From positions 96,001-160,000 of the forward strand of contig CBFGIT010000001.1 in assembly GCA_965648905.1 (NCBI GenBank): DNA of 64,000 nt, written 5' to 3'. Origin of the DNA: a candidate division WOR-3 bacterium. GTDB lineage: Bacteria; Hydrothermota; Tepidihabitantia; Tepidihabitantales; Tepidihabitantaceae. A program made the translations under genes and the position numbers. Within the stretch, counting starts at the first letter, position 1, and every line of letters starts with the position of its first letter. The notes below the pieces were generated by a model, which was not told the origin of the DNA, did not search any database, and saw only the letters and a program-made list of their open reading frames with translations. Positions 28,972 to 53,472 of the stretch are shown here, piece by piece.

Positions 28972-30069
28972 GTGGTGCTAAAAGCGTCCTCTGGCTTCAC
29001 GCGAACGGTCTGCCTTGCCCTCGCGCTGGTGCTTTCTGCCTGCGACAGACCAAGCCCGCGACGCCGCCCCCGGCCACGTAGAAGCGTCACCGTACAGCAG
29101 CGGGGGCCAACAGAGAAACCAGTGCCTGCGTCGTCACCGGACTCGCTGCGCTACGAAAAACCGGTCATGGACCAACGGGTCCGCCAAGTGCCCGATGAAC
29201 TCAGCCGCGCAGTCAGACAAGACCCTGAGACCCATCTGCCCAAGCTGGTCGCATTCCTGGTCAGAGACTGCCACACCGACTCGGCCAAGGCCCGGGTAAT
29301 CCACGACTGGCTGGCCGACAATGTCGCCTACGATGTGCAGGGCTATGCCTCTGGTCGGTTGCCGAGCGGAAGGCCGGCTGACGTGCTTCGCACGGGCAGG
29401 TCGGTATGTCAGGGATTCGGCAACTTGTTCGAGCAGATGTGCAGGCTCGCCGGACTCGAGTGTGTCACCATTTCCGGATATGGCCGAGGCTACTCCTTCC
29501 GCCTCTTCGAAAACGAAGACCCAGCCAAGAGCAACCATGCTTGGAACGCCGTCCGAATCGAAGGCCGCTGGCGCCTGGTCGACGTCACCTGGGACGCCGG
29601 TCACATCGCTGGCAGGCAGTACATCAAAGACTACAACCTAGATTACTTCTTCCTCGACCCGAGTGCTTTCATCTTCACCCACTTTCCAGCCGACCCTTCC
29701 TGGCAGTTGCTGACACCGGCACTGACCCCGCAACAGTTCACTAACCTGCCCTTCCTGCGCGGCAACTTCTGGACCTATAAGCTCAAGTTCACTACTCAAT
29801 TCTCGCGAGTCAACCGAGTTGACCGCAAATTGGAGTTCTCAATCATAGCGCCGCCTAACGTCTCAGTGCTGGTCAACCTGTTGTCTGAAGACGAGCGCGA
29901 GATTCCATCAGCGGCCACGGTTCGCCGCGACGGCTGCGCACACGACATAGCGGTCACCTTCCCCAATCCAGGCCGCTGGCTCGTGAGGGTCTATGCTACG
30001 GCCAGCTTGCCTTCAGACATGCACCCTGGGGTCGCGGACTTAGGGTGCCGACTCGATATGTGTCGCTAG
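28972..30069 (+). CDS. Transglutaminase-like lipoprotein
   Basis: Lipobox LSAC; catalytic triad SVCQG, HAWNAV, VDVTW. Confidence 0.85.
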   Translation: MVLKASSGFTRTVCLALALVLSACDRPSPRRRPRPRRSVTVQQRGPTEKPVPASSPDSLRYEKPVMDQRVRQVPDELSRAVRQDPETHLPKLVAFLVRDCHTDSAKARVIHDWLADNVAYDVQGYASGRLPSGRPADVLRTGRSVCQGFGNLFEQMCRLAGLECVTISGYGRGYSFRLFENEDPAKSNHAWNAVRIEGRWRLVDVTWDAGHIAGRQYIKDYNLDYFFLDPSAFIFTHFPADPSWQLLTPALTPQQFTNLPFLRGNFWTYKLKFTTQFSRVNRVDRKLEFSIIAPPNVSVLVNLLSEDEREIPSAATVRRDGCAHDIAVTFPNPGRWLVRVYATASLPSDMHPGVADLGCRLDMCR

Positions 30070-32186
30070 CGCCGACTCTGCTCCGAGGCATTTGGCCCCG
30101 CGCCGGTAACCCCGTCGCTGCCATCCGTTGGCTCCGACGTACTCGACGGCCCCTTGTTACCTTTCTGCGGCAGCTTCTCAAGCGCCGACGACGCGGCTGC
30201 CATGACGATGGAAACCAGAAGGAAGATAATCACGCCCCAGAACTGAGTCGGGAACGACACGACCTGTCCCCGCCCAAGACACCAGAGCAGGGACAAAGGC
30301 CAAACCATTGGGAGGAGGGGTATGACAAAGAGGAGTGGGTAGACGAGCCACATCCAGCGGGCAGGGACGCGCTTCAGGGCTAGCCGCTTGAGGGATCCCA
30401 ATTGACGGAGCCAAAAATGAGTTGCCAGCGCAGAAGCAAAGAGGACCAGCAGAAATAGCATTGCTGCAGGTATCCCGCGCGGGCGCGCGAACGAACCCAC
30501 GATGACAACACTCCACCATCCCAGGACCACGAGCTCAGCCAAAGCTAACAGCCGCGGCGGTTGCCATGTTGGACAACGTCGGAGCCGCACTGTCGCGCTC
30601 ACGCAGTACACGGCGGCAAGGAAGAGTATCGTTAAGACTACGATTGCCCGGTCGCAGTCGGGGATGATGTAGTCATTGCTGCTGGTTGAGATGTCGATGC
30701 GCGAATTGGCGCGGTCGTGGTCAACCGTAATCAGACTCAGGCGCCTCAGGTCGAAGCTCATGAAACTGGGCGAACCCCCGATATCGGTGAATATCGACTG
30801 CTCCGCCCCGGTTCTGCCAACCCGAGCGGCCTCAGACAACGCCATTGCCCCCCGCAACAGATCGCCACCGGGGTCTGACGATACGAGAGCGACAACCTCT
30901 CGACGACCGGGTCTGTACGTGACCGCAATCTCCTTCTTCCCCGAAATAGCTTTCATCTGCCTGGACTTACCATTCAGTCTGATTCCCAAGGCTTCCATGC
31001 CCGGTAATGAGAAGATGTGGGTAGTACAACGTGCTGCAGCCGACAAGAGCCATGGTGTCACAGCCGAGAGTTGGACGAATCGACCATCTCGTTCGACAGC
31101 GAACGGCCCGAGCTTCTTCTTCGGCAACTCAGAGTTGCACCAGTACGGAGGGTAGATGCAGATGGTGGTCGACTCACCAGTTGCTGAGAAGTCCAGTACA
31201 AATGGTTCAGCAGTACACAGCATCGCCAGTAAGCGGTCGATTGCCTCCCGCACCCTGGCAACGAGGACGGCTGGGTCCCTGTACTGCCATACCCTGACGG
31301 TCAGCGCGGTGTCGCTCAGATCCAGCCTCGGGCACAGGCGCTGCCACAACCTGCCGCGGTAGTATCTGGTCGTGTCACGTGGCCCCTTCTGGAGAAAGAC
31401 AGGGAGCAACACGACCAGTTCGTTGGCTGACTCGAAGAGCCGGACAGAGTTCTCAAACGACGAATCAGCCCGAGCCAAGTTTTCGCCATTGAGTACGACG
31501 CATGAGTTGTCTGACTCCTCGCTCCAGATGCCATCCGTGAGGATGATCGCGAGCTTCACCTTTCTGTCCTTGAGCTCATAACACGCGCGCGGTTCATCCT
31601 CTCTCCGGTCCTGCCCGAACCACCTGAACAAGTCGACCAACCTAGTCTGGGTGTCGGTGCAGCGCACCCTGTCGCACGGATCGAACCCGCGAACGGCATT
31701 ACCGAAGAGAAAAATGGGAATCCTTGTGCCGACGCGCACGACTGAGCCAGGCCGCTTCGCGACCATGTCGAGTAGGGTTTCGACAGCGTGACAGCTTTGT
31801 GAGACATCGAGGAACAAGGCAACCTCGACCGTCTGGTCCAGAGCACTGTAATCTAGCCCGGTCTCCACAACACACTGAGCAAGCTTCCTGTCAAGGAACA
31901 AACCCCGCTTGATCTTACACACGTACTGCACGAGTTTCCCGGCTTGCTCGCTCATGGGGGAGGTTCCTTCGATCTTCTGTTGTATGTACTCCTCAACATC
32001 CCTTCGCACTTGACCTGTCGGCAGCGTATCGTGTCGCAATATCAATTCCCGGCGGATGGACTGGTACGTAAGCACCGTGTCCTTCTTGTCGTATGCACGC
32101 AGGAACGTGCTGATCTGTTCGCACAACGAGTCACTCAGTACACCGAACGAGCTGACCAACACTGCCGACAACATGATAGTGTACAT
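30066..32186 (-). CDS. Exported/membrane vWA-domain protein
   Basis: Signal peptide, MIDAS-like LFLDVSQS and IILTDG, several C-terminal TM helices. Confidence 0.65.
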   Translation of the reverse strand: MYTIMLSAVLVSSFGVLSDSLCEQISTFLRAYDKKDTVLTYQSIRRELILRHDTLPTGQVRRDVEEYIQQKIEGTSPMSEQAGKLVQYVCKIKRGLFLDRKLAQCVVETGLDYSALDQTVEVALFLDVSQSCHAVETLLDMVAKRPGSVVRVGTRIPIFLFGNAVRGFDPCDRVRCTDTQTRLVDLFRWFGQDRREDEPRACYELKDRKVKLAIILTDGIWSEESDNSCVVLNGENLARADSSFENSVRLFESANELVVLLPVFLQKGPRDTTRYYRGRLWQRLCPRLDLSDTALTVRVWQYRDPAVLVARVREAIDRLLAMLCTAEPFVLDFSATGESTTICIYPPYWCNSELPKKKLGPFAVERDGRFVQLSAVTPWLLSAAARCTTHIFSLPGMEALGIRLNGKSRQMKAISGKKEIAVTYRPGRREVVALVSSDPGGDLLRGAMALSEAARVGRTGAEQSIFTDIGGSPSFMSFDLRRLSLITVDHDRANSRIDISTSSNDYIIPDCDRAIVVLTILFLAAVYCVSATVRLRRCPTWQPPRLLALAELVVLGWWSVVIVGSFARPRGIPAAMLFLLVLFASALATHFWLRQLGSLKRLALKRVPARWMWLVYPLLFVIPLLPMVWPLSLLWCLGRGQVVSFPTQFWGVIIFLLVSIVMAAASSALEKLPQKGNKGPSSTSEPTDGSDGVTGAGPNASEQSRR

Positions 32187-32265
32187 ACGTCAGCTAACTC
32201 CCTTCTCATGAACCTGCACGTAATAACCAGCAGCACAGCTATCTATAGTCAACGCGTTGCCCGAT

Positions 32266-33798
32266 CTACTGCTTGACCAGCCTCGCCCCGCCCCAAACCG
32301 ACCAGTCCCAGTAATTGTTCTCAACAGTCTCTACGATGAGGTCCATCTGCTGCGCGCCTTCGACGGAGACGGAAACGGTCTTGCGGTCATCCCAGTCCAT
32401 GACTCCGCTGTCATAGACCTTCTTGCCGTCGAGCCAGACCTGGAAGATGACGCTGCCGCGGCCACCCGCAAAGTCGCCCGGCACACCACGTCTGGGATTG
32501 CCGGCGTCCCATAGTCCGATGTCGCTTTCAAACCGCTTGTACCGCCCGTTCAGTTTCCACCGCAGCCTAGCTGGTGCGTGTGTATGAAGTCCTCGTCGGT
32601 AGGTCGTTCCGCAGATGACAATGGGTCGTCCTCTGAAAGCGTCCTTCTCTAGTTCACACTGTTCAACTTCGGCCGGCTGAAGGTCGCTGACGTACACCGT
32701 TTCCTCGGGCGGCGGTGGCGGCTTGGTGGCGTGTTCAATATGTCGAAGGATGACCGCATCCAGATAGGTCTCTGCTTTGTGCGTGATCGTCCAGTCTTGG
32801 TCATAGACCACAACCGCGGGCGGCTTGACGTCGAGCCTGCGAAGGAAATCCCGTTCGGCAATGGCGTTCTCGAAGCTGATGCCGGCTCCGGCCACGAATC
32901 TCCGGGCCTCAACAGTATCGTCCGGATACGCCAGCACGCCGATGACTCTGAGCAGGTCTGAGCGAGTCTGCCGCGCCAACCGGTCAAGGGTTTTCATGTC
33001 CTCCTTCGTGCGCGCGTCGAGCGGGGTCCAGAAGTAGAAAACAGTCCGGGTGGGTAGGACCGGCCGACTTGATACCGAGTTGCGTCCGTCGAGTGCTGGC
33101 AAACGGAACTGCTCAGCAGCGGCTACGGATTTCCTTCTGGCCGGCGTTGGGGCTAACGGCGGGGGCATCCTGCTGCTCCGTACGTCTTCAGCAGACGTGA
33201 ACGGCACGCCAACCGCAAGCCTAGCCGCGGCATAAAGAGTACCAACTACCGGCGAGCCGGACGGCCCTATCAGGAGATATCCGACCTCCAGTCCGGTGAT
33301 GGCAAACAGGTGCAAGGCAGCATACAATGCGTAGTGCTTGCTGCCTTTCATCCCCCAGGCATTGCCCGTAGCCACGAAGGACAGGCTACTGAAATAGCCA
33401 ACCTTCCCAGCCATAATGGTGGTATCGGGATCGCTCAGCGGAAGGAGAAAACGCAACTCTGGCGTGAACAACCCGTAGCTCTCCATAGCCGACGGCCCAC
33501 AGGACCAGCCGTCAGCCACCGTGACACCAACACCAATCCCCGGCATGAGGCGGTTGCTGCCGCCAAGGCCATAGGTGAGTTTTAGGGCCTCGAACCTGCC
33601 CGTGAGTTTGTCAGGGCCAACTGGGAAACCAACCTCAGCGCCAACGAGCTCGAAGTAGTACCACTTGGCCATTAGTGGACTAAGTGATGCTATCAAGGCG
33701 ACAATCGTGCACACTCGGAAGGCCACCGTCTGAATCAACGGACTGCGAAAAGCGAACGATGACCTCGCGGAAACGAAGCTGGTGCCATACGTTTTCAC
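32266..33798 (-). CDS. Exported protein with Cys-less thioredoxin-like domain and C-terminal NPCBM/NEW2 domain
   Basis: FRLPALDG, VFYFWTP, PAVVVYD; RGLHTHAP, GSVIFQVWLDGKKVYDSG, DWSVWGGARL. Confidence 0.7.
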   Translation of the reverse strand: MKTYGTSFVSARSSFAFRSPLIQTVAFRVCTIVALIASLSPLMAKWYYFELVGAEVGFPVGPDKLTGRFEALKLTYGLGGSNRLMPGIGVGVTVADGWSCGPSAMESYGLFTPELRFLLPLSDPDTTIMAGKVGYFSSLSFVATGNAWGMKGSKHYALYAALHLFAITGLEVGYLLIGPSGSPVVGTLYAAARLAVGVPFTSAEDVRSSRMPPPLAPTPARRKSVAAAEQFRLPALDGRNSVSSRPVLPTRTVFYFWTPLDARTKEDMKTLDRLARQTRSDLLRVIGVLAYPDDTVEARRFVAGAGISFENAIAERDFLRRLDVKPPAVVVYDQDWTITHKAETYLDAVILRHIEHATKPPPPPEETVYVSDLQPAEVEQCELEKDAFRGRPIVICGTTYRRGLHTHAPARLRWKLNGRYKRFESDIGLWDAGNPRRGVPGDFAGGRGSVIFQVWLDGKKVYDSGVMDWDDRKTVSVSVEGAQQMDLIVETVENNYWDWSVWGGARLVKQ

Positions 33799-36700
33799 TT
33801 CTTGTGCAGCCGATAGTTGAAGAACTGCTTCCCTTCGGTTACGGTCTCCAGCGCGAGGTGAGATTCGTAACCCTCCTTGGTGAGTACAAACGTATGTTGT
33901 CCGGCAGTCAGGTACGCTTCGGTCGTGGTGTAGCCGTATGACGTGCCGTCAATATGAACCAGCGCACTCTCGGGCTTTGAGTCAATCCGGACCTTCAGTA
34001 ACTGGCTGAGGGCGAAGGATAGTTGCGACGCTCCTGGCTCAACCGTTCTCCGTTCGCCTGATACAGTTGCGTACCCAGGTAGAAACAGGTCAAACCTGTG
34101 CTGGCCTAGCTCCAGATCAACCGTCGTTGGGGTCTTGCCCCAGGGCGTGCCGTCGATCGTAAGACTGGCGCCTTTGGGCTCGGACTCGATGCGCACTGAC
34201 TGCTTGCGGCGCACAGCAGAGGTCTCCTGCGGAGGAAAAAGTGGTGGCTTCGCTGAGCGCTTCTCTTCTGGCAGGGGATTCTTTGGCCTCTCCGTATTCG
34301 TCTCTTTCTCAGCAAATGCGTCCAGCGATACGAGCCCGAACCGACCTTCGCTTCGCCGGAATCTGACGGTACGGCCGCTCACGTCCACCACCTCAATACT
34401 TTCGCCTGGTGTGAGATGCCCATCCGGTCGATTGGTAGCGTAGTCCACAACAGGGGCTGCGCTCAGGACTTTGCGGAACTTGCCGTAAGGAAGAAAGGCG
34501 TCACTGTGAATCCAGCCCTCGCCTTGCGGGGTTCTGACCGAGTACCAGCGCTCGTCGCCGAGTGTTGAATCAACAACCTTGACTGTCGCGCCTGCTGACA
34601 GGGTTGCCTTGATAACGGAGTAGCGGTCCGCGCCTTCGCGCAGGTTCACCGACTCGCGTACGACTGTTTCGGTGCGGCCGCGAAACGCCCCGGCGTAGCA
34701 GTTCCATGCCTGCGGAGCTACACGACCGAGTAGCAAACCGCACAATCCCAACGGCACGAGTACCGCCCAATGCAGGTAGGCGTAGAGGTGCTCCTTAGGG
34801 ATGAGAGTAGTCAGGAGAACTGTGTAGAATGGCACGAGACCAAACAATACCTGAGGAGCTGCAAGAAAGACAAGCCCTGCGCTGAACACCCAGCACATTG
34901 CCTTCCAGAGCCACTGGGCACGCAGGAACAAGCCCAGAAACAAGGCTCCGAGCGCGACCGCAAGCACTGCAATGTCGAAGAGCGACCAGATTACGCCTGA
35001 GGTCGTGGCGAAGTAGGGCAGAAAGGCGAGCCCCGGAAACAAGGCGAGAAGGACAGCGGCCCAACGGTAGTCGGTCGTTGGTGCTGGCTTTGGTTTCCTG
35101 ACCGGTTTGCGTAGGGTTATCTTTCCCCACTTGACACCAGGTTTGACGTAGTCGGCCTTCCAGCCTGGCGGAAACTCCTCCAGCTTGAGCAATTCACGCC
35201 ACCTTTGTCTGAGCTTGTCCAGGTTGTCCAGTGTCGCCCGTTCTTCCTTGGTCATGTCAGCGCGATAGTCCGACGGCGTTAGCGCATCCAGCAAGTTCAG
35301 TGCCTGCTCCTGGACCTGCTTGTTCATGAGGTCCAGTTTCCACTTCGGAGCAAAGCTGGAGAGGTCGTCTGAGCGGTTCTTGACCTTGGTCATGAAGGTC
35401 TGGGCTCTGGCGATGTGCTGCGGTACACGCTCTACTCTTCTGACGAGCTCATTCAGCAAGTTGCCGGTCTCTTTGACAAGGTCGTCCATCTTTTCGTGCG
35501 CCTCGACCTTGGCCTTGCGAAGAACCTTCTCTCCGGCCCGGTATCCAACCTGAACAACCTTGTCAACCGTGAGGTCGGAATCACTGGTGAGTTTGTCTCG
35601 GTTGACAACCTCCACTTCGTGCTTCAACTGGTGCTCGGTAAGACCGCCTTTCGGGTGTATTTCCTGAACACCAAGCTTGTCCAGCCACCCACTCAGAAGC
35701 TCGCCCTGCTTCTCCGTGCGCAGCAGGTCAAACAGGCCAAGGCACTGCTCCGGCTCAGCCATCCCCTTTCGGGCCAGGCCGAGGACAAGGGCAAGGGAAC
35801 CAGCCTTGGCCCCAAGTTTCTCTTCGGTCTCACGTGCCAGCTTCCAGAGCGGCGGTTCATCGAGGGCCAGCTCAACCACGGCCTTCTTCTCCATGTCGGC
35901 GGACGCGAGTCTGAGACCGGGTTCAATCACACGAGCAACCAGGAGCTTGCCCTCCTGCGCGATGAACTCCTTCACGTTCTCCGGTGGTTGGGCGCCGCGG
36001 AACTCGTAGTTACCCAGTTCGGCTGGCGTGATGCTGGTGTCAATTACCGGCTCGACCAGTTCCAACCCGCCAAGACGGGCGATGTCTTCGTAGTCGGCCC
36101 GCTGGAAGCCGGCGCGGATGAGCTCCGCAGCCAGCTCGAAGAACACACGCTGGTCATGGTGTCTGGTCAGGAGCGACTGTACGAGCTGCTCGATCGTCTC
36201 AACGCGCTTCTTGTCGAGCTGGGCTGCCCGGCGGCGCACCGCGGTCCGCACCTTGTCAGCAGCGCTCTTGACCGGAGCGGCGCGGCTGCGCAGAGTCAGC
36301 ACACCGCGGAAAGCATCGTGGAAGCATTCCTTGGACGAAAACACATTGATGTCTGAACGACCGACGCGCTCAAGCACCAGCCCGGCCAGGGTCCTGAGTC
36401 CTTCGGTTCCGGCCCAGTCGCTCAGAATCAGGGTACGACATTGCGCATCGGGGTCAAGGTCTTTGACTGCCTTGGCAAGCGCAGGCAGCGTTGCCTCAAG
36501 CCCAGGGACTTCTGCCGATGCGAAGACAAATGGGCCGCTCCAGCGTTCCTCTCCCTGCAGCGCTGCCTGGAAGTCAGCGAATATCTGGTTCTCGTGCTCG
36601 GGGAATAGACGCAGGTGCTGCTCCAGTTCCTCGCGTTCTGCCTTGAGCCTGTTCCAGATCGCCTGCAAAGACAAGTCCGGCAACTCCTGTTGAGCCGCGA

Positions 36701-37058: not shown

Positions 37059-37128
37059 TTTCTTGCCCGGTCGGTCTTCGTCCAGTTGTCATGGCTTCTC
37101 GCGCCACCCCGTCCGTTCCCCTTCTGAG

Positions 37129-38322: not shown

Positions 38323-40979
38323 CGCGATTTCACCTCCATCTTCTCACGCTTGCCGCCAATCTCGCAATACGCCTCAAGCTCGCCTTTGTCGGTTATCTTC
38401 AGGATGACCGGAATATCCCTGACGTTGGTTGACTGGACATTCTGCTCAAGCTGGTATGTGCGGTACGGGACTGTCTGGGGCTCCTGTCCCAAGGAGAGGT
38501 TCTCCTCCAATCGAAGCTCAAGCCCCGACCTGCTTGCGGCCTTGACAAGTTTGAGACCAGGTTTATCGGACCTGAACTCTTTTCCGTACTCCGCGCCCCA
38601 TGGCACAAGTGCCCTGAACGCCAAAGCGCCGGAGGCATCCCCTGTTGCGGCGCCGAGTCGGCCGACCTGCCGCCACCAGCGCCGCTCGCCCTGCAATTTG
38701 AACTCATCTGACACGCGCGTGTAAATAATCGCGCCCAAGGAAACACACTCCTTCAGGATAGGTCTGCCTGCGGAATCCCGGACGTAGTCAGTGCCCTCCG
38801 CAAACCGCGAGAACACCTGGGGCACTGTCGGCAGCAGAGAAGCCTTGCCGCACAGCAGAAGCCGGTCGGCCTTCTTCAGGTTGCATCTCCCCATGAAGAG
38901 GTCCATCTCCCTTTCGAAGTCCCGCAGGTATTTTCGTGCAATGCCGAGAATGTCGTCGATGGAAGCGTCTAGTTTCATTTGCTTTCCCCGCGCTATGTTC
39001 ACCGGGATTGCGCCCAGCTTCCTGATCTCCTTTATCCAGGTTCTGTATCTTTCGTTCTCTGGAATCGCGTGCAAGCTGCCGAGGCATTCCTCAAGCAGCC
39101 GATCGTCGCGGGGCACCAGAGGGTAGTCCGTCGTGGACTGCTCGCCGGCACCGGGTTTCACCACCTCTGATACCGCCAACTTGACCAGCTCAGGCGCCAC
39201 TGGCTCGAGATCTGGCGGCACGTCTCCCTGCTTCGCGATGTAACGCCCAACTTCAAGAGTCAGGACTGTGCCCCCCAGATTCTGGTCACCCCATGCACCG
39301 ATGACCTCTACCGTCTCTGGGCAACGACTGGTGCTCTCCCCCCGGTTACTCTGTGTTACGCGGAAAAGGGTAACATCAGTTGTGCCGCCGCCAAAGTCCA
39401 TGACCAGCAGAGTATACTCCGACCGAGACTTGATAGACTCGTCTCTGCGAGCACCACTGTAGAGGTAGTAAATGCCGGCTGCGAGCGATTCGTCAACCAC
39501 CTCCGGGTCCGCCACCTCCAGCCCCTTTGCTTGCGCGGCCTTCACGAACACGTCCCTCAGCACTTCGCGCTGATGAAGCGTGAACCTGGTAGGGACAGTG
39601 AACACCAGCCGCGTTGGCCGCGCTTTCAACTGACGTCGTGTGAGACGAAGCAACTCCATCACCGCGTACTGAGCAACGTCCTCGGCAGGTATCTCGCGCT
39701 CTTCGCCCTGCAGCACAAGCTTCTCAACGGCCCCAGTGCCAACCCGCGGCTTCACCGCACGGACGTAGCTCTCCCTGCGCAACCTCCCCAGTCGTGCAGC
39801 CTCCCTGCCGATGTCAAACACATACGGGGGTGTCCGGTCTTGCTTGTAGTCCCTGAAGTAGACGTCGGATATGATGACCGTCTCAGAGTCCTCAAGCACG
39901 AGATTGACCGGCTTCTGGCCATCCCAGCGGGCAACGGCCGATGCGCTCGTACCATAGTCGACAGCCAAGTCGTCCTTATAGACATCGTCCACAATCCGGG
40001 CATTGACTCTGCAGGTAGAAATTCTGGGGGCGTTGGACTTGAACTCGATCGTAACCGGTATACTGCCACGCGCCTTGGCCGTGGTCCGGGCCTCCAGCTT
40101 GACCTCGGCTGAGCCGCCGGCAGGAACCTCGCTCGCGCCAAGCTCGTAGGACCAACTCGCTTCAGGGTTGTCGCACTCCAGGACGACTTGCTCGATACGC
40201 AACGGGTCGTCGCCGACGTTCTGCAGCTTGACTTTAGTGGTACCACGGTCCTCAGGGTGTGTGTCGAAGTACTGAAGCTGACCGTCGGGAAAGACTATCT
40301 CCGGCGGGCGCTTGACTATCGCCTTGAACGTGCCGGTTAGAATCAGACTGCCAGTTCCGCTGCCGCGCGTCAGTGTGAAGCTGACCTTGGCTTCTCCGCG
40401 CTGCCGTGGGTCAACCTGCACGGGCACTTGAGCAGTTCCCTGGGCCAGCTTGACCGGTTGCCTCGGAACCTTGATACTCAGCAGATTCGGCTGGTCTACT
40501 TCTAATTCCAGGTCAGCCTCCAGGGCACAGTCCGAGGTGAAGCTGAGCATTGCCTCGGCTGAACCGAGGTAGACACTGACGTCTTTGACCGTGATGCTGC
40601 GCGGAGCAGGGAAGAGCCATATTTCGGCTTCGTTCAAGACCCCGAGGTCGTCGTAAACTGAGACGAAACACGACCTTGGAAACACCCCCGCCTGTCCCGG
40701 GTCGACAGTAATCTCGACTCTGGTTTCGTGCTGGCCGACGCTGCGATCTTGCCCAGAGATTCGGACCCACTGTTCGTGCTGGAATCTAAGCACCGAGAAA
40801 GCGCCTGGCGAGCGGTCACGAACCTGGAACGACTCGGTAACCGACGTGCGCTTCTCCCGGTCAACGTAGAGGTTGACCGTCTCAAACAACTCGTGCCCGC
40901 AGAGTGAGCAGTACCGGTCGCCGGACAGCGGCTCCCAGTTGCCACACTTGGGGCATCTCTCTTGTGGCGCCGGTCTCAT
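38319..40979 (-). CDS. Atypical Hsp70-family ATPase with N-terminal zinc ribbon and Ig-like domains
   Basis: CPKC..YCSLCG; LQNVGDDPLRI (Ig-like); AVDYGTS, FTVPTRF, DESLAAG, MDFGGGTTDV, LCGKASLLP, CVSLGA. Confidence 0.88.
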   Translation of the reverse strand: MRPAPQERCPKCGNWEPLSGDRYCSLCGHELFETVNLYVDREKRTSVTESFQVRDRSPGAFSVLRFQHEQWVRISGQDRSVGQHETRVEITVDPGQAGVFPRSCFVSVYDDLGVLNEAEIWLFPAPRSITVKDVSVYLGSAEAMLSFTSDCALEADLELEVDQPNLLSIKVPRQPVKLAQGTAQVPVQVDPRQRGEAKVSFTLTRGSGTGSLILTGTFKAIVKRPPEIVFPDGQLQYFDTHPEDRGTTKVKLQNVGDDPLRIEQVVLECDNPEASWSYELGASEVPAGGSAEVKLEARTTAKARGSIPVTIEFKSNAPRISTCRVNARIVDDVYKDDLAVDYGTSASAVARWDGQKPVNLVLEDSETVIISDVYFRDYKQDRTPPYVFDIGREAARLGRLRRESYVRAVKPRVGTGAVEKLVLQGEEREIPAEDVAQYAVMELLRLTRRQLKARPTRLVFTVPTRFTLHQREVLRDVFVKAAQAKGLEVADPEVVDESLAAGIYYLYSGARRDESIKSRSEYTLLVMDFGGGTTDVTLFRVTQSNRGESTSRCPETVEVIGAWGDQNLGGTVLTLEVGRYIAKQGDVPPDLEPVAPELVKLAVSEVVKPGAGEQSTTDYPLVPRDDRLLEECLGSLHAIPENERYRTWIKEIRKLGAIPVNIARGKQMKLDASIDDILGIARKYLRDFEREMDLFMGRCNLKKADRLLLCGKASLLPTVPQVFSRFAEGTDYVRDSAGRPILKECVSLGAIIYTRVSDEFKLQGERRWWRQVGRLGAATGDASGALAFRALVPWGAEYGKEFRSDKPGLKLVKAASRSGLELRLEENLSLGQEPQTVPYRTYQLEQNVQSTNVRDIPVILKITDKGELEAYCEIGGKREKMEVKSR

Positions 40980-41025
40980 GCGGGTCTTCTCCTAGTATCG
41001 TACGCCGCTGCCCGCGGACGTCATG

Positions 41026-44000
41026 CTAGAGACCTGACCGGTCGACCCAGGCTTCCTTCTTCAACGCCGGGAACTTGGCGTACTGGGGCCAGTCGAGGAA
41101 CTCACCGACCTGGTTTCTGACCCAGTCAGCCAGCGCGTCTCCGGCAAGGCCTTTCGGAGGCAACTCCAGATTGCCCGCAGCCTGCGAGACCGCCTTGTGC
41201 TTTGCGTCCACAAGCTCGTGTTCCGATGTCCCAACTGTGAAGCCGGGCTGCGAGGAGAGATACATGAGGACGTAGCTATACGCCTTACGCTCCTGCTCGC
41301 TCAACGCTGCCTCACGCTCGCTGATAACAGCCAGCAACCGACCTCGAAGCCCAGCGTCATGCATCAAAGTATCCATGGCTTCTTTGCGGTTTTTCCCGAG
41401 TTCGATGTCAGCAATACGGCCGACTTTGACCTTGCAGTACCCATATGCCGTCACGCGGTCCTTCTCGTAGCGCCGGATGACTCCCAAAATCGAGCCAAAC
41501 AGCAGGGCCTCAAGTGACTCCTTGGCGACGTGCGCGTCCTGTTCGGAGTACAACACCAGGTCATCAAATTGCCCTTCCCAGCGCTTGTCCAGGTGGAGCG
41601 GTATCTGGTAGTAGAGCTTGCCGAACTGCCGATTCTCACGCAGGTCCCGGTAGAATGAATAATAGGCATCGTGACAGGCACCGGAGACGACCGGTACGGC
41701 CGGCAGAGGAAAGGCATAGCAGATTGTGTACAAGAACACCTCACTCTTCCGTGTGGACTTGAGAACCTGAAGCTGGTAGTCACGGGAGGCCAGCGCACCG
41801 CCAAGCTCCTTCTCTAGTGCATCAACGGTGTTCTTGTCCGCATCGGCTGATACACCCAGGTAGGCTTCGCGCTTAGCTTTGACCGGCTTGCCACCAAAGT
41901 GACCGGTCAGCTTGACCAGGGGCAGTCCGGCCAGAGCCAGATCGGTCGCCCAAGCCTTCAGGGACTTCTTGGTGAACTCGGGGTGGGTAAGCACGTCCTC
42001 GTCGCGCGGGTATGAAGCAAAGTCCTGAGTGAATCGGTTGTCGCAGAACTTGGCAAGCAGCGCGCGTACCCTCTCCATGCTCTCTTGAAAACGGAAGTCA
42101 GCAAACTCAAGCAGCGACATTGGTCTTGGCAGCCCTTCGTGGGCCAGGAAGCCCTTGGCTTCGCTTGCGGCAGACACTGGTTCTCCACGGAGCCTGTAGA
42201 AGCCGGGCCAGTCGCGGTCATAGTTGAATATGCGTATGAAGAGCACATCGTCACCAGGGCGGAGGCGTGCGGTCTTTTCTTCCAAGAACGGCCCAGTCAT
42301 GGCCTCCATGTCGGTTAGGAATTGTGGCAACCGGGATGTGCGACTGACAAGATACGACGCCGCATCCATGACCGCCTGCTGGCACAGCCCGTAGAGCACC
42401 GCCTCGGCTCGGGCAAAGCCAAACTGCGCCTCGGCGTCCTTGACTTTGTCGGCAAGCAACTTGACCGAGAAGTCGCGTTCGTTCAATAGGCCGACCTTAC
42501 TGTTCGTCACAGCCTCGGTGAGCTCGTCAAGGAACCGGTCCCTCTCTCCCTGCCAGAGACCGGCGTCCTTCTCGGCCCTTTCGCGGCGCTTCGCGCAATC
42601 GGACTGGTCGGACGTGAACACGGTCTGAAGCTGCTCTTGGATTCTCGCCAGATACCCGGTCTTCTCGGCCAGCAGCCCGCGCAGTCCTCGTCCCGGTTCC
42701 TCCAGGCACCTGACCAACCATTGCTCCATTACGGTCTTCAGTTGCTCGGTGACCGCGGGCAGCTTCACCTTGAGCCGATGCGGAATATTGATGTCGGCGT
42801 CCAGCCGAGCCGTGTCCATGCCAACGTAATGCGTGTCCACGTCGTTGAGCGCCTTGCGTGCTTCCTCGATGTCGGCAAGCGTGCAACTGCCGGCTTTCGA
42901 GCGCAGGCCGGCAACTGCGCTGTCTGCTGCCTGCGTGAGTTTGTCGCGCCAGCCGGTGTCGAATCTGCGCGCAACGCCATCCAGCGTGAGCCCGAAGTCA
43001 GCCAAGTCGTGCTGGATGCTTCCGACCATGTCTGGGTCGGCGCAAGGCCGGACCCAGTAGCTGGCAATGTCGTGGCCAAGTTGGGCAGCGCAGGCGCCGC
43101 GGAGGGCATCAACCGGTATCTCAATCTTGCTCATGCCAAATGACCCGTAGCGCCGTGAGTACTCCTGAACCAGAGCCATCTGATCAACCTTGACGTTGGC
43201 GCCTTCGCCGCCTTCTAGGTACTGAACAACGTTGCTGTAGCTTGAGCGCTTGATAGTCGAGAAAGCACTGGGCATGAAGTCCATGTAGAGCGACTCGGCA
43301 ACCATGCGGAATAGCTCCTTCCTGGACTTGATGCCAACCTTCTCGTTCTCGGCACCAAGAACGTAAGTAACGTCAACCGGTGGACCCACGAGGGATTGCG
43401 GGTCGCCTTTTGTCCAGACTACATCGAACGTGGCTATTCCCTTCTTGCGTTTTTCGGACCTGGCCTGGCTGTCACCGGTCTGCTCACTGCCGGAATCGGC
43501 CTCGTCCACACAGAATGTGTAGTGCTCAAGCTCCTTGAGCGCGGCATAGGCATTGGCATAAGAGCGCTTGGACTGCTCGTCACTGAGGCTGCGGAAGTAT
43601 ACATCCGGCAGAACGCAGATGCCGGCAACGTGTTTGAACTGCTTCTGCATCTTTTTCTGAAGCAGAGTCAGCAGAAACGTCGTGTCCAGGAACGAACCGC
43701 CGCCCGTGCCACCCGCGACTGAGAAAACAATGAACACCTGAACGCCCAGGTCGAAGTCGTTCATTGTCGTTCCCGGCAGGAACTCCTGGGTCGCGCGGAG
43801 GTCCGGGAGCATGAGGAGGTCCCGGGAGAGCTTGTCGATGATCCCTTGCACCCGCTCGTGGTGGTAGAAGAACGCCAGCCGACCAATGGAACGGACGTTG
43901 CCGGCACCATCAGAGATTTTCCCGCCTTTCCGCTCTACTTCCGGGTACAGCCAGTCATGAATGTAGCCCCAGCGACCCCTGTTGTCAAAGACGTCAACAA

Positions 44001-44274
44001 AAGCCTGTCCAACTTCACCCTCGAGCAGCGCAAGGCTGTCTGTGTCAGTGAATCTGACCGACTCGTAGATGATATCTAGTGGCTCTCCCCACGCGCCTCC
44101 AGCTCTGATGTCGGTATCCAGCCACAGGTAGGCAACGCAAGGCAACCCGGGCATGTTGAAGTTCTCGTAGAACTTTCTTCGGAGCCGCAGCAGTACTTCC
44201 TTCCCGGTTCCGCCCAGGCCGATGAACAGGGTCGGCCTGATTGCACCGCCCTTCTCTTCTCTTGCAGGTGGCAT
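41026..44274 (-). CDS. Large tubulin/FtsZ-like GTPase (Tubulin_2/FtsZl1 type)
   Basis: PTLFIGLGGTG, GAGNVRSIGRL, SVAGGTGGG signature, ANAYAALKEL; long helical C-terminus. Confidence 0.9.
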   Translation of the reverse strand: MPPAREEKGGAIRPTLFIGLGGTGKEVLLRLRRKFYENFNMPGLPCVAYLWLDTDIRAGGAWGEPLDIIYESVRFTDTDSLALLEGEVGQAFVDVFDNRGRWGYIHDWLYPEVERKGGKISDGAGNVRSIGRLAFFYHHERVQGIIDKLSRDLLMLPDLRATQEFLPGTTMNDFDLGVQVFIVFSVAGGTGGGSFLDTTFLLTLLQKKMQKQFKHVAGICVLPDVYFRSLSDEQSKRSYANAYAALKELEHYTFCVDEADSGSEQTGDSQARSEKRKKGIATFDVVWTKGDPQSLVGPPVDVTYVLGAENEKVGIKSRKELFRMVAESLYMDFMPSAFSTIKRSSYSNVVQYLEGGEGANVKVDQMALVQEYSRRYGSFGMSKIEIPVDALRGACAAQLGHDIASYWVRPCADPDMVGSIQHDLADFGLTLDGVARRFDTGWRDKLTQAADSAVAGLRSKAGSCTLADIEEARKALNDVDTHYVGMDTARLDADINIPHRLKVKLPAVTEQLKTVMEQWLVRCLEEPGRGLRGLLAEKTGYLARIQEQLQTVFTSDQSDCAKRRERAEKDAGLWQGERDRFLDELTEAVTNSKVGLLNERDFSVKLLADKVKDAEAQFGFARAEAVLYGLCQQAVMDAASYLVSRTSRLPQFLTDMEAMTGPFLEEKTARLRPGDDVLFIRIFNYDRDWPGFYRLRGEPVSAASEAKGFLAHEGLPRPMSLLEFADFRFQESMERVRALLAKFCDNRFTQDFASYPRDEDVLTHPEFTKKSLKAWATDLALAGLPLVKLTGHFGGKPVKAKREAYLGVSADADKNTVDALEKELGGALASRDYQLQVLKSTRKSEVFLYTICYAFPLPAVPVVSGACHDAYYSFYRDLRENRQFGKLYYQIPLHLDKRWEGQFDDLVLYSEQDAHVAKESLEALLFGSILGVIRRYEKDRVTAYGYCKVKVGRIADIELGKNRKEAMDTLMHDAGLRGRLLAVISEREAALSEQERKAYSYVLMYLSSQPGFTVGTSEHELVDAKHKAVSQAAGNLELPPKGLAGDALADWVRNQVGEFLDWPQYAKFPALKKEAWVDRSGL

Positions 44275-44285
44275 GTTATCCTCCT

Positions 44286-44885
44286 CTAGTTTCCTTTAGC
44301 ATCTTGCCTGGTCCTGCCAGACCCTGGGTCGGCAACGTCCGGCCGGGAGAACCTGCTGCCCGCAGGCTCGGCCTCCTCGGTTCCGGTGGACCAGTCGCTG
44401 TTGTCTTCAGCCGTCGGTGTGATTACCGGCAGGACGAACCAGCACAAGGCGGCAGTTGCTGCCGCGACAACGATAGCTACGAGAATCAGCACCCAGCCCA
44501 GCGCGCGCGCCATCAGCACTATCGCCACGATGAAGAGCAGTCCGGCAGCCCCGGCAAGCCAGTACCAGGAGAATGTGCCGGCCAACCCGACCGCAACCGC
44601 GGCAGCCAGAAAGCACACGGCGTACCCAAGTCCGGCCGAAGCTGCTGAAGCGACCGAGGCGTCCTGACGCAGCAGCTTGCGGTACACACCCCGGCCTGCG
44701 ACCCAGCCGAGGAAGACTGCGACCAGCATTACGACAATCCTTGCTATCCACAGGAACCCTTCAACTAAGTGAGCAGTCACGCTCCACTGCAGCGCCTGGG
44801 TTGTGACTACGAAAGTGCTGATGAACACAAGCGCGATGAATACGAGCCAGTATAACGGGCCGAGTCCATGTCGTTCTTTGGCCAT
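44286..44885 (-). CDS. Hypothetical polytopic membrane protein
   Basis: About 5 hydrophobic helices; AGGAGG RBS. Confidence 0.75.
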   Translation of the reverse strand: MAKERHGLGPLYWLVFIALVFISTFVVTTQALQWSVTAHLVEGFLWIARIVVMLVAVFLGWVAGRGVYRKLLRQDASVASAASAGLGYAVCFLAAAVAVGLAGTFSWYWLAGAAGLLFIVAIVLMARALGWVLILVAIVVAAATAALCWFVLPVITPTAEDNSDWSTGTEEAEPAGSRFSRPDVADPGSGRTRQDAKGN

Positions 44886-44904
44886 GTTACCTCCTGGTAG
44901 GGCC

Positions 44905-46434
44905 TTATGAGTCACTGGGACGACCGCGCCTTTCGGGCCGTTCCTTTCGATCTTCTCTGGTCTTTCTGCGTATCGGACCGCAGACCATCAGTATCGTCGT
45001 GCCGTCGTGCCGCTTCAGAGAGAACTCAAGACCCGGCACTAGTCTGACGTACTCCTGCCCGTCAGTCAGCCTGTACCGCATCGCCGGCCGGAAAACGTGC
45101 CCGACGTCAACCTTCCCCAGCGTATCACGCTCCATAATCAGCTCGCCGGTATCGCTGTCAATCCGGCACTGGACATCCCGGTCGTGCAGCCGGGCAAAGA
45201 CCTGGAGCCGCCGCTGCCCCAGCAATGGTTTGACCAGCCGATAAGTCACCAGGCACGCGGCGATGACCAGTGCCAGTATCACGAGCAGCAGCAGGGCCGG
45301 CAAGGGCCCGTAGTCGGCCTCCAGCGGTATCGTCACCAGAGTGCTGCAACTGACGGTTCTTTCGCTCAACTCAGCGGGCAGTCGGTTGATTCCGAACACC
45401 TTGCCCTCGCGACGAGCATCTTCCGGAGTAGCCGCGTCGTACTTCGTCTGGTACTCGCGCGTCAGCGACAGGTCGCTTGGCCGGATGCTGACGACCACCG
45501 GCAGTTCCATCGGTGCATTGACCCTGCCGCCGGCGAACGCTGCCTTCAGCAGGCTGCCGGTCAGCGTCACCTTGCTCTTGTAGCGCATCTTGAACCCGGG
45601 ACCGGTGCTCTGGCCCGGACCCAGCCCCGGAAGTGTAGTGGGCTGAACGCTGTACTTCACAGGTGCGAGGCCGAGCCCGGACTTGCCTGCTGCGGCCGTG
45701 CGAATCAGTCTTGGCGTGTCGATCTTCGCACTCGAGAAGCTGATATGGCTGAAGCAACTGACGAATCCAATCTGGACCGAATCGCAGATGCTCTGGCCCA
45801 GGATGTACTTGCGGGCCCGGGGTTTGTGCACCGGCTCGGCCTTCACGGTGTTCCGGCCCAGAGGCTTAACGAGGAGTGCTTCGGTCTGGTAGTTCTTCTG
45901 AACACGCCCGGAAAGAGCGCTCTTCATCTGCTCGAACCGCGCGTCCTGGTTCCAGTCAAGCAGCAGCGCATACACGGTCAAGCCCTGTGTTCCCGCAGGC
46001 TGCAGAATCGGAAAGAAGTAGACCTTCTTGACTCGAGGTCCTTTGAGCAACTCGTAGAACTTGTCCAGGTGTGCGCCTTCCGGATTGCCCGGCTGGTGCT
46101 GGATGTTGTCGGTGACAATCCAACCGATGTCGTACTTGCGGTCGAGCACGTACTTCGCCGCCTTGTCAATCTCGGTGAACGACCAGGCGAAGTTCTCGTA
46201 GGCAAAATCCTTGTCGCCTGTTGACTTGACCGGCTTGACTTCTGTGCTGAACACGGCCAGGTCGGGCTTGCCGTACTCGCTGCATACGGCAAGCAGGACA
46301 CGGGTGAGGTCTTCGACTGAACCGCGCTCGAAGTAAGGCTTCATGCTGCCTGACCGGTCAACGAGCACTACCTGACCGGCCAGTGCAAGTTGGCCAAGAA
46401 GGACGAATCCGACCAGCCGTGTCAACCTTGCCAT
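44905..46434 (-). CDS. Exported vWA-domain protein with C-terminal TM anchor
   Basis: Signal peptide, VLVDRSGSM MIDAS, IVTDN, TM helix, short cytoplasmic tail. Confidence 0.78.
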   Translation of the reverse strand: MARLTRLVGFVLLGQLALAGQVVLVDRSGSMKPYFERGSVEDLTRVLLAVCSEYGKPDLAVFSTEVKPVKSTGDKDFAYENFAWSFTEIDKAAKYVLDRKYDIGWIVTDNIQHQPGNPEGAHLDKFYELLKGPRVKKVYFFPILQPAGTQGLTVYALLLDWNQDARFEQMKSALSGRVQKNYQTEALLVKPLGRNTVKAEPVHKPRARKYILGQSICDSVQIGFVSCFSHISFSSAKIDTPRLIRTAAAGKSGLGLAPVKYSVQPTTLPGLGPGQSTGPGFKMRYKSKVTLTGSLLKAAFAGGRVNAPMELPVVVSIRPSDLSLTREYQTKYDAATPEDARREGKVFGINRLPAELSERTVSCSTLVTIPLEADYGPLPALLLLVILALVIAACLVTYRLVKPLLGQRRLQVFARLHDRDVQCRIDSDTGELIMERDTLGKVDVGHVFRPAMRYRLTDGQEYVRLVPGLEFSLKRHDGTTILMVCGPIRRKTREDRKERPERRGRPSDS

Positions 46435-47876
46435 ATCAGCGCCCTCATCTCCTGCTGGTTGGTGACGTAGATGTGCATGAGGCCATTTCCAATCGGGATG
46501 AACGTGACACCTTCAGCATAGTCCTTCAGTTGTGCCACACGCAGCTCTCCATGTTCGCGTGCCGGGCCGTAGAATCTGATGGTGCCGCCCGCGGTCGGCG
46601 CAACTCGACCGATGGTCACGCCGCTCACATGGCCGGGCAGGCCGTCAGGGACGAGTTCCTCATCCTCTGTCAGCTTAGTGAAGCTGCAACCGCTGTATTT
46701 GACAATCGCCCCCTTGGTGTGGAGTAGTGGTTCACCCGTCTCGCTATCCTGACAAATGACCATCGACTCACCCTTAGGCAGGATGGCAGGTGTACACACG
46801 AGCCTGGAATCGAGACTGCCGATAACGGAGAGCGCCGGCTTTCCGTTTCTCGTCCCAAGCACATAGGCAGAACTAGAGCTCACAAAGCAGGGCATGGTGC
46901 CAACTGCGGTATGCACACCCGCACTCTGCCGTCCCTCCTGGGGTGTCAGGAATGGCTGGAACCCCTTGGGCCAGTCAAGTGCCGCAACGCCGTTGTCTGA
47001 CAACACATGCACGGCCTCGGCCGTGTAGCAGAAAACACGCCCGCGGAAGAACCACGGGCCTGCCACCTGACCTTCGGTGACGACAGGAATTGCCTTTGCG
47101 TTCTCGGGCGCGTCACGCGGAACTTGGACGAGTTCAGCAGCAGTCCCTTTCTGAGCTAGCAGATACCACGCGCCGAGGCTGGGGTCTTCTGCCAGCAGGT
47201 GGCAGTTGTTCTCGATGTCCGACAGGAAGCGGTCGTGTCCGACAGCGGAGCAGACCTGATGCCAGCCCCTGGTCACCAGGTTAACGGCAACCAGATGCTC
47301 GCTGCTGGCAGCCAGCCCCACCGGGACCTTTGTCTTGTCTGACTTGCTCGACCGCACGGAGAGCAGCAGCGAGGAACGTCCGAACTCCTCGGGCAGAGAG
47401 ACAATCAACTCGGCTTGCTTGGCGCGAAGCGCCAGCCGGTAGAAACGGCCGCTTGCGGTCAAGAACCAAAGGAACTGGGCCAACATCTTCGGTGGTTCGC
47501 GGATGACGTCTGGCACTTCAACCAGTTGTGGAGTTGGGGGCTCAGGCAACTGTTTGCCTTCGGTCGAGGAAGGAACCGTAGAGGTCGAAGGGCCGCCAAA
47601 GCCAGGGTAGTACCGACTCAGGGTGCGGCTGATATTGGTGAAGTCGGAGATTCTTGCTCTATTGACTTCCCCGCCGCAGCACCGACAGAACTGCGCCAAG
47701 GTCTGATTGACGGCACTGCACTTCGGCTTCGCGCAGACACTCGCCGGTCGTCCGCACTCAGCGCACCACGCTGCGTTGTCAATACGTTCCATCACGCTGC
47801 TGTTACAGCCTGGGTATGGACAACCAGTCCGGAAACGTTCCGGATAACGTGAATCTATGCCGACGTCTTCTGCCAT
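46422..47876 (-). CDS. Zinc-ribbon hypothetical protein, probable beta-propeller C-terminus
   Basis: CPYPGC, WCAECG, CAKPKC, FCRCCG; GAGG RBS before ATG 47876; TTGACT-16-TATATT promoter upstream. Confidence 0.7.
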   Translation of the reverse strand: MAEDVGIDSRYPERFRTGCPYPGCNSSVMERIDNAAWCAECGRPASVCAKPKCSAVNQTLAQFCRCCGGEVNRARISDFTNISRTLSRYYPGFGGPSTSTVPSSTEGKQLPEPPTPQLVEVPDVIREPPKMLAQFLWFLTASGRFYRLALRAKQAELIVSLPEEFGRSSLLLSVRSSKSDKTKVPVGLAASSEHLVAVNLVTRGWHQVCSAVGHDRFLSDIENNCHLLAEDPSLGAWYLLAQKGTAAELVQVPRDAPENAKAIPVVTEGQVAGPWFFRGRVFCYTAEAVHVLSDNGVAALDWPKGFQPFLTPQEGRQSAGVHTAVGTMPCFVSSSSAYVLGTRNGKPALSVIGSLDSRLVCTPAILPKGESMVICQDSETGEPLLHTKGAIVKYSGCSFTKLTEDEELVPDGLPGHVSGVTIGRVAPTAGGTIRFYGPAREHGELRVAQLKDYAEGVTFIPIGNGLMHIYVTNQQEMRALIWQG

Positions 47877-53426: not shown

Positions 53427-53440
53427 CAGCTTTCCAGAAC

Positions 53441-53472
53441 ACACGCATGATAGTAATTACTATCATGCGTGT
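53441..53472. promoter_or_regulatory. Perfect 32-bp palindrome overlapping the XRE gene promoter
   Basis: ACACGCATGATAGTAA|TTACTATCATGCGTGT; on the minus strand TTGACA-17-TATCAT overlaps it. Confidence 0.8.

Follow-up and report, generated by a model that had tools for sequence, protein, structure and literature searches.

Operons in which tubulin-like proteins of the FtsZl1 type (Pfam Tubulin_2) are accompanied by von Willebrand factor A (vWA) proteins have been described in bacterial genomes, with GTPases, protein kinases and OmpA proteins as the partners named in the sections considered here (Makarova and Koonin, Biol Direct 2010, PMC2875224); the terms "Hsp70" and "DnaK" are absent from the text of that article. 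The GAP1-N2 DO-GTPase conflict systems, which are known by prediction only, include tubulin-vWA, HSP70-GrpE and kinase themes, called non-overlapping in the parts of the article used here (Kaur, Burroughs, Iyer, Aravind, eLife 2020, PMC7159879). No function has been assigned to FtsZl1 proteins since 2010, and the tubulin- and Hsp70-containing conflict systems of 2020 are predictions. A more recent preprint restates that the switch role of STAND NTPases can be taken over by HSP70-like NTPases (10.64898/2026.10.19.760177). Here, we analyze a nine-gene cluster from a candidate division WOR-3 bacterium that codes for a Tubulin_2 protein, an Hsp70-like protein and GrpE-like membrane proteins. It is located on a 64,000-nt stretch of contig CBFGIT010000001.1, hereafter the window, and its genes are called g1 to g9 in the order of transcription. 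The cluster is real, conserved, rare and horizontally scattered. We propose that it is an accessory, envelope-spanning NTPase module, horizontally scattered and most likely a conflict (immune) system, a reading to which we would give an even chance.

Organization of the cluster

The nine genes are long co-oriented open reading frames (ORFs) on the minus strand, at positions 30066-47876 of the window. Together with a promoter-like site and a convergent gene, they are as follows (TM, transmembrane; Ig, immunoglobulin).

47948..47975, minus strand: promoter-like site, sigma-70-like candidate TTGACT-16-TATATT (10 of 12 consensus positions; consensus match only)
46422..47876, minus strand: g1, zinc ribbon/beta-propeller protein
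44905..46434, minus strand: g2, vWA-TM protein
44286..44915, minus strand: g3, small multi-TM protein
41026..44274, minus strand: g4, Tubulin_2 protein
38319..40979, minus strand: g5, zinc ribbon/Ig-like/Hsp70 protein
37129..38322, minus strand: g6, TM protein with a GrpE-like domain
33795..37058, minus strand: g7, GrpE-like/TM/SH3/PEGA protein
32266..33798, minus strand: g8, NPCBM protein
30066..32186, minus strand: g9, possible vWA protein with TM helices
28972..30069, plus strand: transglutaminase-like lipoprotein (Pfam Transglut_core, E 3.8e-16)

Consecutive genes overlap by 13 nt (g1/g2), 11 nt (g2/g3) and 4 nt (g5/g6 and g7/g8) or are separated by gaps of 11 nt (g3/g4), 46 nt (g4/g5), 70 nt (g6/g7) and 79 nt (g8/g9). 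The promoter-like site is found about 70 nt upstream of the g1 ATG at 47876. An earlier interpretation of this DNA, made from the letters alone and referred to below as the sequence-only reading, had described nine tightly packed genes behind one promoter. The layout is as it stated; the promoter is a consensus match, and further matches of this kind are present inside the operon. A longer g1 ORF extends to 48362, and its use as the start is unlikely. Antisense ORFs inside the operon, for example those at 35415-36356 and 45097-46224 on the plus strand, were treated as coding-strand shadows. No tRNA, integrase or flanking direct repeat was found to mark the cluster.

Pfam families scored above their cut-off in four of the nine proteins (g4, g5, g7 and g8), and the other five (g1, g2, g3, g6 and g9) had no Pfam match. 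With NCBIfam, the nine proteins gave DnaK/HscA and GrpE matches only, all far below threshold. The sequence-only reading had also remarked that the GTPase, kinase or FHA partners of FtsZl1-vWA loci are missing here, and indeed Pfam detected none among the nine proteins.

The tubulin-like and Hsp70-like proteins

The match of g4 to Tubulin_2 (PF13809, FtsZl1) covers residues 16-402 with an E-value of 2e-57 (195 bits versus a cut-off of 27). Two motifs, GLGGTGKE and AGGTGxG, which we take to be the FtsZ/tubulin loops T1 and T4, are invariant in 13 homologs. With this family match and the GTP-binding loops kept, the 1082-aa protein is probably the tubulin-like GTPase that it had been called. Beyond the GTPase domain, g4 has a conserved tail of about 680 aa with no fold assigned, and a sequence search of the family against the PDB did not find a solved relative. 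In a tree of the GTPase domain, a branch with support 93/95 and seen in 96% of bootstrap trees separates the 15 Hsp70-linked tubulins from seven vWA-only Tubulin_2 proteins of the same phylum; the partial sequence of locus L077 was left out of this tree, the two sets were sampled differently and several vWA-only rows are on long branches. Viral contigs scanned with the tubulin family gave three weak partial matches only.

The g5 protein is composed, in this order, of a zinc ribbon (an N-terminal CxxC...CxxC), an Ig-like region (weak DUF1573-type match, E 0.0019), an Hsp70 nucleotide-binding domain (Pfam HSP70, E 2e-8) and a C-terminal domain of about 130 aa, which bears out its earlier description as a zinc-ribbon/Ig-Hsp70 protein. 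The profile of the g5 family aligns with residues 3-351 of DnaK only, that is with the nucleotide-binding domain (E 8e-23), and gave no match to the Hsp70 substrate-binding domain or lid; the last ~130 aa match nothing in profile comparison. In an alignment of 18 sequences, the motifs DYGTTDS, DFGGGTTD and AGQSSxFP are conserved, in line with the phosphate-1, phosphate-2 and adenosine motifs of an actin-like nucleotide-binding domain. The invariant residues, which include K410, E497, D528, T533 and D535, fall where the profile aligns with the IKR, NEPTAAA and DLGGGTFD motifs of DnaK and are presumably the catalytic positions of that protein. Judged by these alignments, g5 is an Hsp70 nucleotide-binding domain without a recognizable substrate-binding domain. 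Since a housekeeping grpE-dnaK pair is present elsewhere in the same genome, g5 represents an additional Hsp70 of the operon's own, or a private one in the terms of the sequence-only reading.

A second extra Hsp70/GrpE cluster is present in this genome on the minus strand of contig C51 (L165:1114-11995). It contains genes for three AAA ATPases, one of which is fused to a protein kinase, for two FGE-sulfatases and a HEAT protein, and for a GrpE of 182 aa and a divergent Hsp70 of 540 aa, and it looks like another conflict-type or unfoldase-type module.

The GrpE-like membrane proteins

In g6, two hydrophobic segments (residues 4-22 and 97-115) are followed by a cytoplasmic part made of a long helix, a helical bundle and a GrpE-like C-terminal domain. 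When the profile of this domain was compared with the PDB, the best two matches were GrpE structures (3a6m, E 6e-5; 8gb3, E 2e-4), and the GrpE fold, a long helix, a helical region and a C-terminal beta-domain, is present in the predicted structure. Both the profile and the predicted structure suggest that the GrpE-like segments adopt a GrpE-type fold, as had been supposed, and that g6 would be a TM-GrpE protein.

The g7 protein starts with a conserved N-terminal domain, followed by two GrpE-like modules, a coiled coil, 4-5 TM helices (667-778), an SH3 domain and two PEGA domains. Pfam recognizes SH3_3, two PEGA and, at the borderline, GrpE (25.9 bits versus a cut-off of 25.8). A domain hidden Markov model (HMM) places a clear GrpE-like module at residues 397-522, and a colinear candidate at 289-384 is weak (hhalign probability 28%). 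Of the multi-GrpE-TM-SH3-PEGA composition proposed earlier, the SH3 domain, the PEGA domains and one GrpE module therefore stand, and the "multi" holds at most in part, the second module being weak.

Six relatives match Pfam GrpE, and a search of 1.84 billion proteins with the GrpE-like domain profile returned 1114 cluster representatives with E <=1e-3, 156 of them with E <=1e-10. Among the best 150 of the 1114 representatives, the GrpE-like domain is at or near the C-terminus in nearly all, and 113 of the 128 that are at least 300 aa long have TM-like segments upstream of it by a crude hydropathy criterion, two segments being the commonest case. The family thus delineated appears receptor-like, an outer part being followed by a TM helix, a coiled coil and the GrpE-like domain, and the outer domains are variable.

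The other proteins of the cluster

The first gene encodes a 484-aa protein, predicted to be cytoplasmic, in which a double zinc ribbon is followed by a beta-propeller. Seven cysteines (Cys 19, 38, 41, 48, 53, 64 and 67) are invariant in 10 homologs, in line with the zinc-ribbon protein seen from the sequence alone. The propeller had been missed: in the AlphaFold2 (AF2) model (pLDDT 74.6, pTM 0.77) the chain is all-beta beyond residue 117, and the top Foldseek matches are propellers, namely the designed 8-blade Ika8 (E 1.5e-8), BamB and the WD40 domain of Fbw7/Cdc4.

The g2 protein begins with a signal-like N-terminus, followed by a divergent vWA domain and a beta-rich region; a single TM helix (378-396) then leads to a small C-terminal domain, which hydropathy places in the cytoplasm. 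The residues of its metal-ion-dependent adhesion site (MIDAS, DxSxS...T...D), D26, S28, S30, T87 and D109, are invariant in nine of nine homologs. The commonest weak Pfam matches of the family are to vWA families, all sub-threshold, with vWA-TerF-like in 5/9 members (best E 0.0027) and VWA_2 in 3/9, and the family profile found nothing significant in the PDB. The intact MIDAS and these weak matches argue for the vWA-TM assignment originally made. Searches for homologous proteins returned three proteins for g2 and two for g6, each count including the window's own. The g3 protein has four hydrophobic helices according to hydropathy and may be described, as before, as a membrane protein.

The last two proteins of the operon, g8 and g9, were found only in the window and in one related locus, L071. 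The g8 protein, of which L071 has a 52% identical ortholog, is exported; its N-terminal part is hydrophobic and rich in Gly, and an NPCBM glycan-binding domain (Pfam E 7e-30) is located at its C-terminus. Its middle part is a possible cysteine-less thioredoxin (Trx)-like region, for which the sole hint is a match of E 0.2 to a putative thioredoxin; a sequence search of this region against the PDB gave nothing significant. The NPCBM half of the former Trx-like/NPCBM label is thus retained, and the Trx-like half is a lead. The g9 protein, whose N-terminal part is exported or soluble and whose C-terminal part has 5-6 TM helices, is fast-evolving and has a match in L071 with E 4.5e-21. For its identification as a second vWA protein, a DxSxS motif (DVSQS) and language-model neighbors in vWA clusters, at 0.86-0.87, are leads only, and Pfam gave no match even at E 5. 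A P-loop-like string in g9, GIRLNGKS, was attributed to chance, with no match to a GTPase family.

The gene of the transglutaminase-like lipoprotein, which also has an Ig-like domain, is convergent with g9, and the ends of the two genes share 4 nt. It is absent along with the operon from the same-genus genome G001, and it is found, again convergent, beside the operon in L071 (67% identity) and in genome G217 (E 3e-92). As it is lost or kept together with the operon, it is probably a tenth member of the cluster, which the sequence-only reading had missed.

Conservation, distribution and modularity

A word-indexed search defined a g5 family of 38 proteins of about 900 aa, some of them from candidate division WOR-3, Acidobacteriota and Bryobacteraceae. 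From the alignment of 18 members we obtained 68 genome and 73 metagenome loci (141), all ORFs of which were searched with the nine window proteins. In 14 of the 141 loci, a g4-type tubulin gene is directly upstream of the g5-type Hsp70 gene, with an intervening caspase-FGE-sulfatase gene in L078. A fifteenth locus, in G217, has g1 to g7 in order, and L071 has all nine genes. Homologs of g1 and g2 are present upstream in 8 of the 14 loci and in G217, a small 2-6-TM ORF directly precedes the tubulin gene in all 14 related loci inspected, and GrpE-like proteins are encoded downstream of the Hsp70 in 10/10 tubulin-linked loci with at least 1 kb of downstream DNA. Seven further loci were inspected in detail: the upstream DNA is too short in L074 and L076, a distant Hsp70 is all that L004, L007 and L008 have, and L099 and L100 are described below. 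The core order is a zinc-ribbon/beta-propeller protein, a vWA-TM protein, a small multi-TM protein, a tubulin-like protein, a zinc-ribbon/Ig/Hsp70 protein and one or more TM-GrpE-like proteins, and gene order is conserved over the 15 loci at 20-70% identity. This neighborhood search thus found, in 15 divergent loci, the conserved co-occurrence of Tubulin_2, Hsp70 and GrpE that the sequence-only reading had anticipated.

In the window's phylum, Pfam Tubulin_2 is detected in 21 of 272 genomes, and strong g5 matches in two of the 272, the window's own genome and G217 (next best E 8e-12); none of the 40 nearest relatives gave a strong g5 match, and the cluster is absent from them. Seven other Tubulin_2 loci of the phylum were inspected: six have a clear vWA gene directly upstream, and no Hsp70 or GrpE-like match was found at any of the seven. 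Conversely, the tubulin gene is missing from L099 and L100, where zinc-ribbon, Hsp70 and GrpE-like genes are present. The cluster therefore joins two modules, the vWA-tubulin pair and the zinc-ribbon/Hsp70/GrpE-like set, each of which is also found alone.

Two observations concern these separate modules. Besides the zinc-ribbon/propeller-like protein, the zinc-ribbon/Hsp70 and the GrpE-like membrane protein, L099 (861-10791) and L100 (536-8839) encode a TPR protein and an amidohydrolase, a pair that is likewise found after the GrpE-like gene in L104, L009 and L088. In two phylum genomes, pairs of dCTP-deaminase-like genes are directly downstream of vWA-Tubulin_2 (L181:6703-7648 and L183:6090-7026).

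The G001 genome matches the DNA of the window up to 28871, and the match resumes at 53842 (76% identity). Adjacent to the right flank, G001 has a different vWA-Tubulin_2 pair with Cas10-palm-like, Cas_APE2256/HD and bAvd-like genes (L177, G001:C34:1-19000). Since G001 shares both flanks only, the region of the window at about 28.9-53.8 kb (28872-53842) can be regarded as a variable stretch with alternative tubulin-vWA systems.

Proposed function and alternative explanations

In our favored reading of the cluster as a conflict system, the operon looks built of a first module comprising the exported MIDAS-vWA protein and the Tubulin_2 GTPase, and of a second one comprising the zinc-ribbon/propeller protein, the lidless zinc-ribbon/Ig/Hsp70 protein and the receptor-like membrane proteins with a GrpE-type cytoplasmic output. 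The parts of a switch look intact, namely the Hsp70 ATPase motifs, the tubulin GTP motifs, the MIDAS and the GrpE fold. Effector-type genes are found in related loci: a TIR gene in L075, the caspase-FGE-sulfatase gene in L078, a metallophosphatase-FGE-sulfatase and a kinase-like protein in L088, RHS and WD40 in L003 and a cyclase-AAA_16-TPR protein in L076. In the phylum, vWA-Tubulin_2 pairs adjoin CRISPR-type, dCTP-deaminase-like and nuclease genes.

The mechanism that we envisage adds topology and family knowledge to the observed domains, predicted topology, gene order, patchy distribution and linked genes. When the envelope is disturbed, for example by phage attack or by damage to the cell wall, this would be sensed by the outward domains, namely the vWA domain of g2, the SH3-PEGA part of g7, the NPCBM domain of g8 and, perhaps, g9 as well as the transglutaminase-like lipoprotein. 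The TM helices would carry the signal to the GrpE-like domains of g6 and g7, and these would speed the release of ADP from g5, with the Hsp70 serving as a switch rather than a folding chaperone. The state of the Hsp70 would then gate polymer formation by the tubulin-like protein, a GTP-dependent step located at the membrane. Relatives may couple this platform to TIR, caspase, nuclease-like or RHS effectors, and in the window either the polymer or the two membrane proteins g3 and g9 would serve as the output. The GrpE dimer is asymmetric, and the tandem of a strong and a weak GrpE-like module in g7 could mimic it. We regard this route, from receptor-like proteins that signal envelope events via a GrpE-type output to nucleotide exchange on a lidless Hsp70 and from there to the gating of a tubulin-like polymer, as tentative and rather unlikely. 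If true, it would be a case of transmembrane signaling by a chaperone co-factor in a bacterial machine of immune or cytoskeletal function; no Hsp70 system is known to work in this way.

Several results weigh against the conflict-system reading or its mechanism. Pfam found no recognizable enzymatic effector among the nine proteins of the window's own operon, and the effector-type neighbors of the relatives are domain-level similarities in 5 of the 16 relatives scanned, not system calls. Searched against PADLOC-DB 2.0.0, the nine proteins gave no match better than E 0.0078, and two marginal ones at about 0.01. The peptidoglycan- and glycan-binding domains and the OmpA neighbors fit a structural envelope role equally well. 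No match to a J-domain or DnaJ was found in the nine proteins or in 53 neighbor proteins of related loci. Concerning the GrpE-like domains, the Foldseek matches to GrpE are modest (E 9e-4 to 1e-2) with low TM-scores, and VIA places generic helical bundles above GrpE. Finally, the relatives were collected via the Hsp70, which biases the count of adjacent tubulin genes, and as kin they are not independent.

The main rival explanation is a membrane-remodeling or envelope-organizing cytoskeletal machine, in which the polymer would shape or organize the inner membrane and be linked to the wall and outer layers through the vWA, SH3-PEGA, NPCBM and OmpA-type parts. The Hsp70 and GrpE-like proteins would handle assembly and disassembly, and there would be no role in conflict. 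Such a function was proposed for FtsZl1-vWA operons, in the sections of the article considered here (PMC2875224), and it is consistent with the dominance of membrane and wall-binding domains in the window's operon, with the lack there of an enzymatic effector and with the OmpA/MotB-like genes of L075, L079 and L088. However, a system with strong matches in two of 272 phylum genomes and absent from a congener is unlike structural housekeeping, and the TIR, caspase, RHS and nuclease-like genes of the relatives, as well as the CRISPR-type, dCTP-deaminase-like and nuclease genes beside the vWA-Tubulin_2 pairs of the phylum, also speak against it. We consider remodeling somewhat unlikely.

The cluster could alternatively encode a dedicated chaperone for the assembly or quality control of its own membrane and exported proteins (the vWA proteins, g9), with the tubulin-like protein as a scaffold and no signaling. 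Pairing an Hsp70 with GrpE is textbook chaperone logic, and the GrpE-like proteins are membrane-anchored. However, the substrate-binding domain of Hsp70 is unmatched in g5 and the proteins scanned include no J-domain protein, which makes a chaperone-only role less likely, and a receptor-like GrpE family with variable outer domains suits sensing better; this explanation is in our view improbable. A chance juxtaposition of unrelated genes, or mis-called ORFs, might be suspected from the five proteins without a Pfam match, yet it is barely conceivable in view of the overlapping stop/start junctions and the confident structure models and is refuted by the gene order conserved across the 15 loci.

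Other features of the window

A TrkA-N/RCK channel-like gene is located at 48188-49324 on the plus strand, divergent from the operon. Its homolog in genome G254 (L179:2670-3887; 39% identical, E 2e-81) is inside a tight vWA-Tubulin_2 gene string with transglutaminase-like and MlaD genes. A relationship between the transglutaminase-like protein of the window and that of L179 was considered and rejected, no similarity being found.

A perfect 32-bp palindrome (16-nt arms, no spacer) at 53441-53472 abuts the start of an HTH_31 regulator gene (52680-53444, minus strand). As short matches to this area occur on several G001 contigs, on both strands, the palindrome appears to be a repeated operator-like element. 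The segment 52596-52661 matches many G217 contigs and one G001 contig at 81-94% identity and is probably a dispersed repeat. ARAGORN reported two unusually long candidate tRNA genes, at 748-842 (95 nt, Arg-tcg) and 59498-59593 (96 nt, Leu-aag).

Comparison with known systems

Like the FtsZl1-vWA operons, as far as the sections of PMC2875224 considered here describe them, the cluster has a vWA gene upstream of that for its Tubulin_2 protein and many membrane-protein partners, and OmpA-family genes occur in its relatives. It differs from them in that the Hsp70-linked tubulins form a branch of their own.

The DnaK-GrpE(-DnaJ) cycle offers the second point of comparison. Both have an Hsp70 nucleotide-binding domain with ATPase motifs and a GrpE-type helix and beta-domain. 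In contrast to that cycle, g5 has no substrate-binding domain match and carries a zinc ribbon and an Ig-like region before the nucleotide-binding domain, a J-protein is missing, and the exchange factors of the cluster are membrane-anchored with extra helical bundles.

In the anti-phage system Zorya, a wall-anchored membrane complex (ZorAB) passes an envelope signal to cytoplasmic parts. The analogy with our cluster is functional only: L075, L079 and L088 have domain-level matches to the ZorB/MotB-like OmpA domain, but there are no ZorA, ZorC or ZorD matches, nor MotAB-type genes in the window's operon.

Beside the FtsZl1-vWA operons, the cluster most resembles the GAP1-N2 systems, which, in the parts of the article used here (PMC7159879), also contain helical-tailed tubulin homologs, vWA proteins that have TM helices, GrpE and HSP70 (in some cases without the peptide-binding domain), N-terminal zinc ribbons, SH3 and PEGA domains beyond TM segments and variable effector-type neighbors, including FGE-sulfatase-type ones, and are membrane-proximal. 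The window's operon differs by lacking both defining proteins, a DO-GTPase of the TRAFAC clade and GAP1 with its N, M and C domains. DO-GTPase1, DO-GTPase2 (PF19975, PF19993) and GAP1-N2 (PF20013) are absent genome-wide from a genome that is 99.6% complete, DO-GTPase2 and GAP1-N2 being detected in Corynebacterium glutamicum as a positive control, and no DO-GTPase or GAP1 match was found among the nine proteins or 53 neighbor proteins. FNIII, DnaJ and TPR components are also missing from the operon. Furthermore, the tubulin and HSP70/GrpE themes, separate in those portions of PMC7159879, are combined in the cluster, and its GrpE-like domains are outputs of membrane-spanning receptor-like proteins.

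The sequence-only reading had proposed a candidate undescribed system, and this applies in part. Literature searches found no description of the gene set, and PADLOC has no match to it; the source data of Kaur et al. 2020 may list tubulin+HSP70 neighborhoods, and the terms HSP70, Tubulin and GrpE do not occur in the supplements examined. On the other hand, conflict systems with tubulin, HSP70, GrpE and vWA proteins had already been predicted, always with a DO-GTPase/GAP1 core in the sections used here (PMC7159879). The cluster provides a defined set of proteins for asking whether Hsp70 nucleotide exchange can be a signaling step, and it bears on whether a tubulin homolog can act in immunity or envelope surveillance and on the use of some 1000 metagenomic proteins with a GrpE-like C-terminal domain. 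Beside the described systems, it stands as a compact version without the GTPase/GAP1 core, in which a tubulin-like GTPase, a lidless Hsp70 and membrane-spanning GrpE-like proteins are inherited together.

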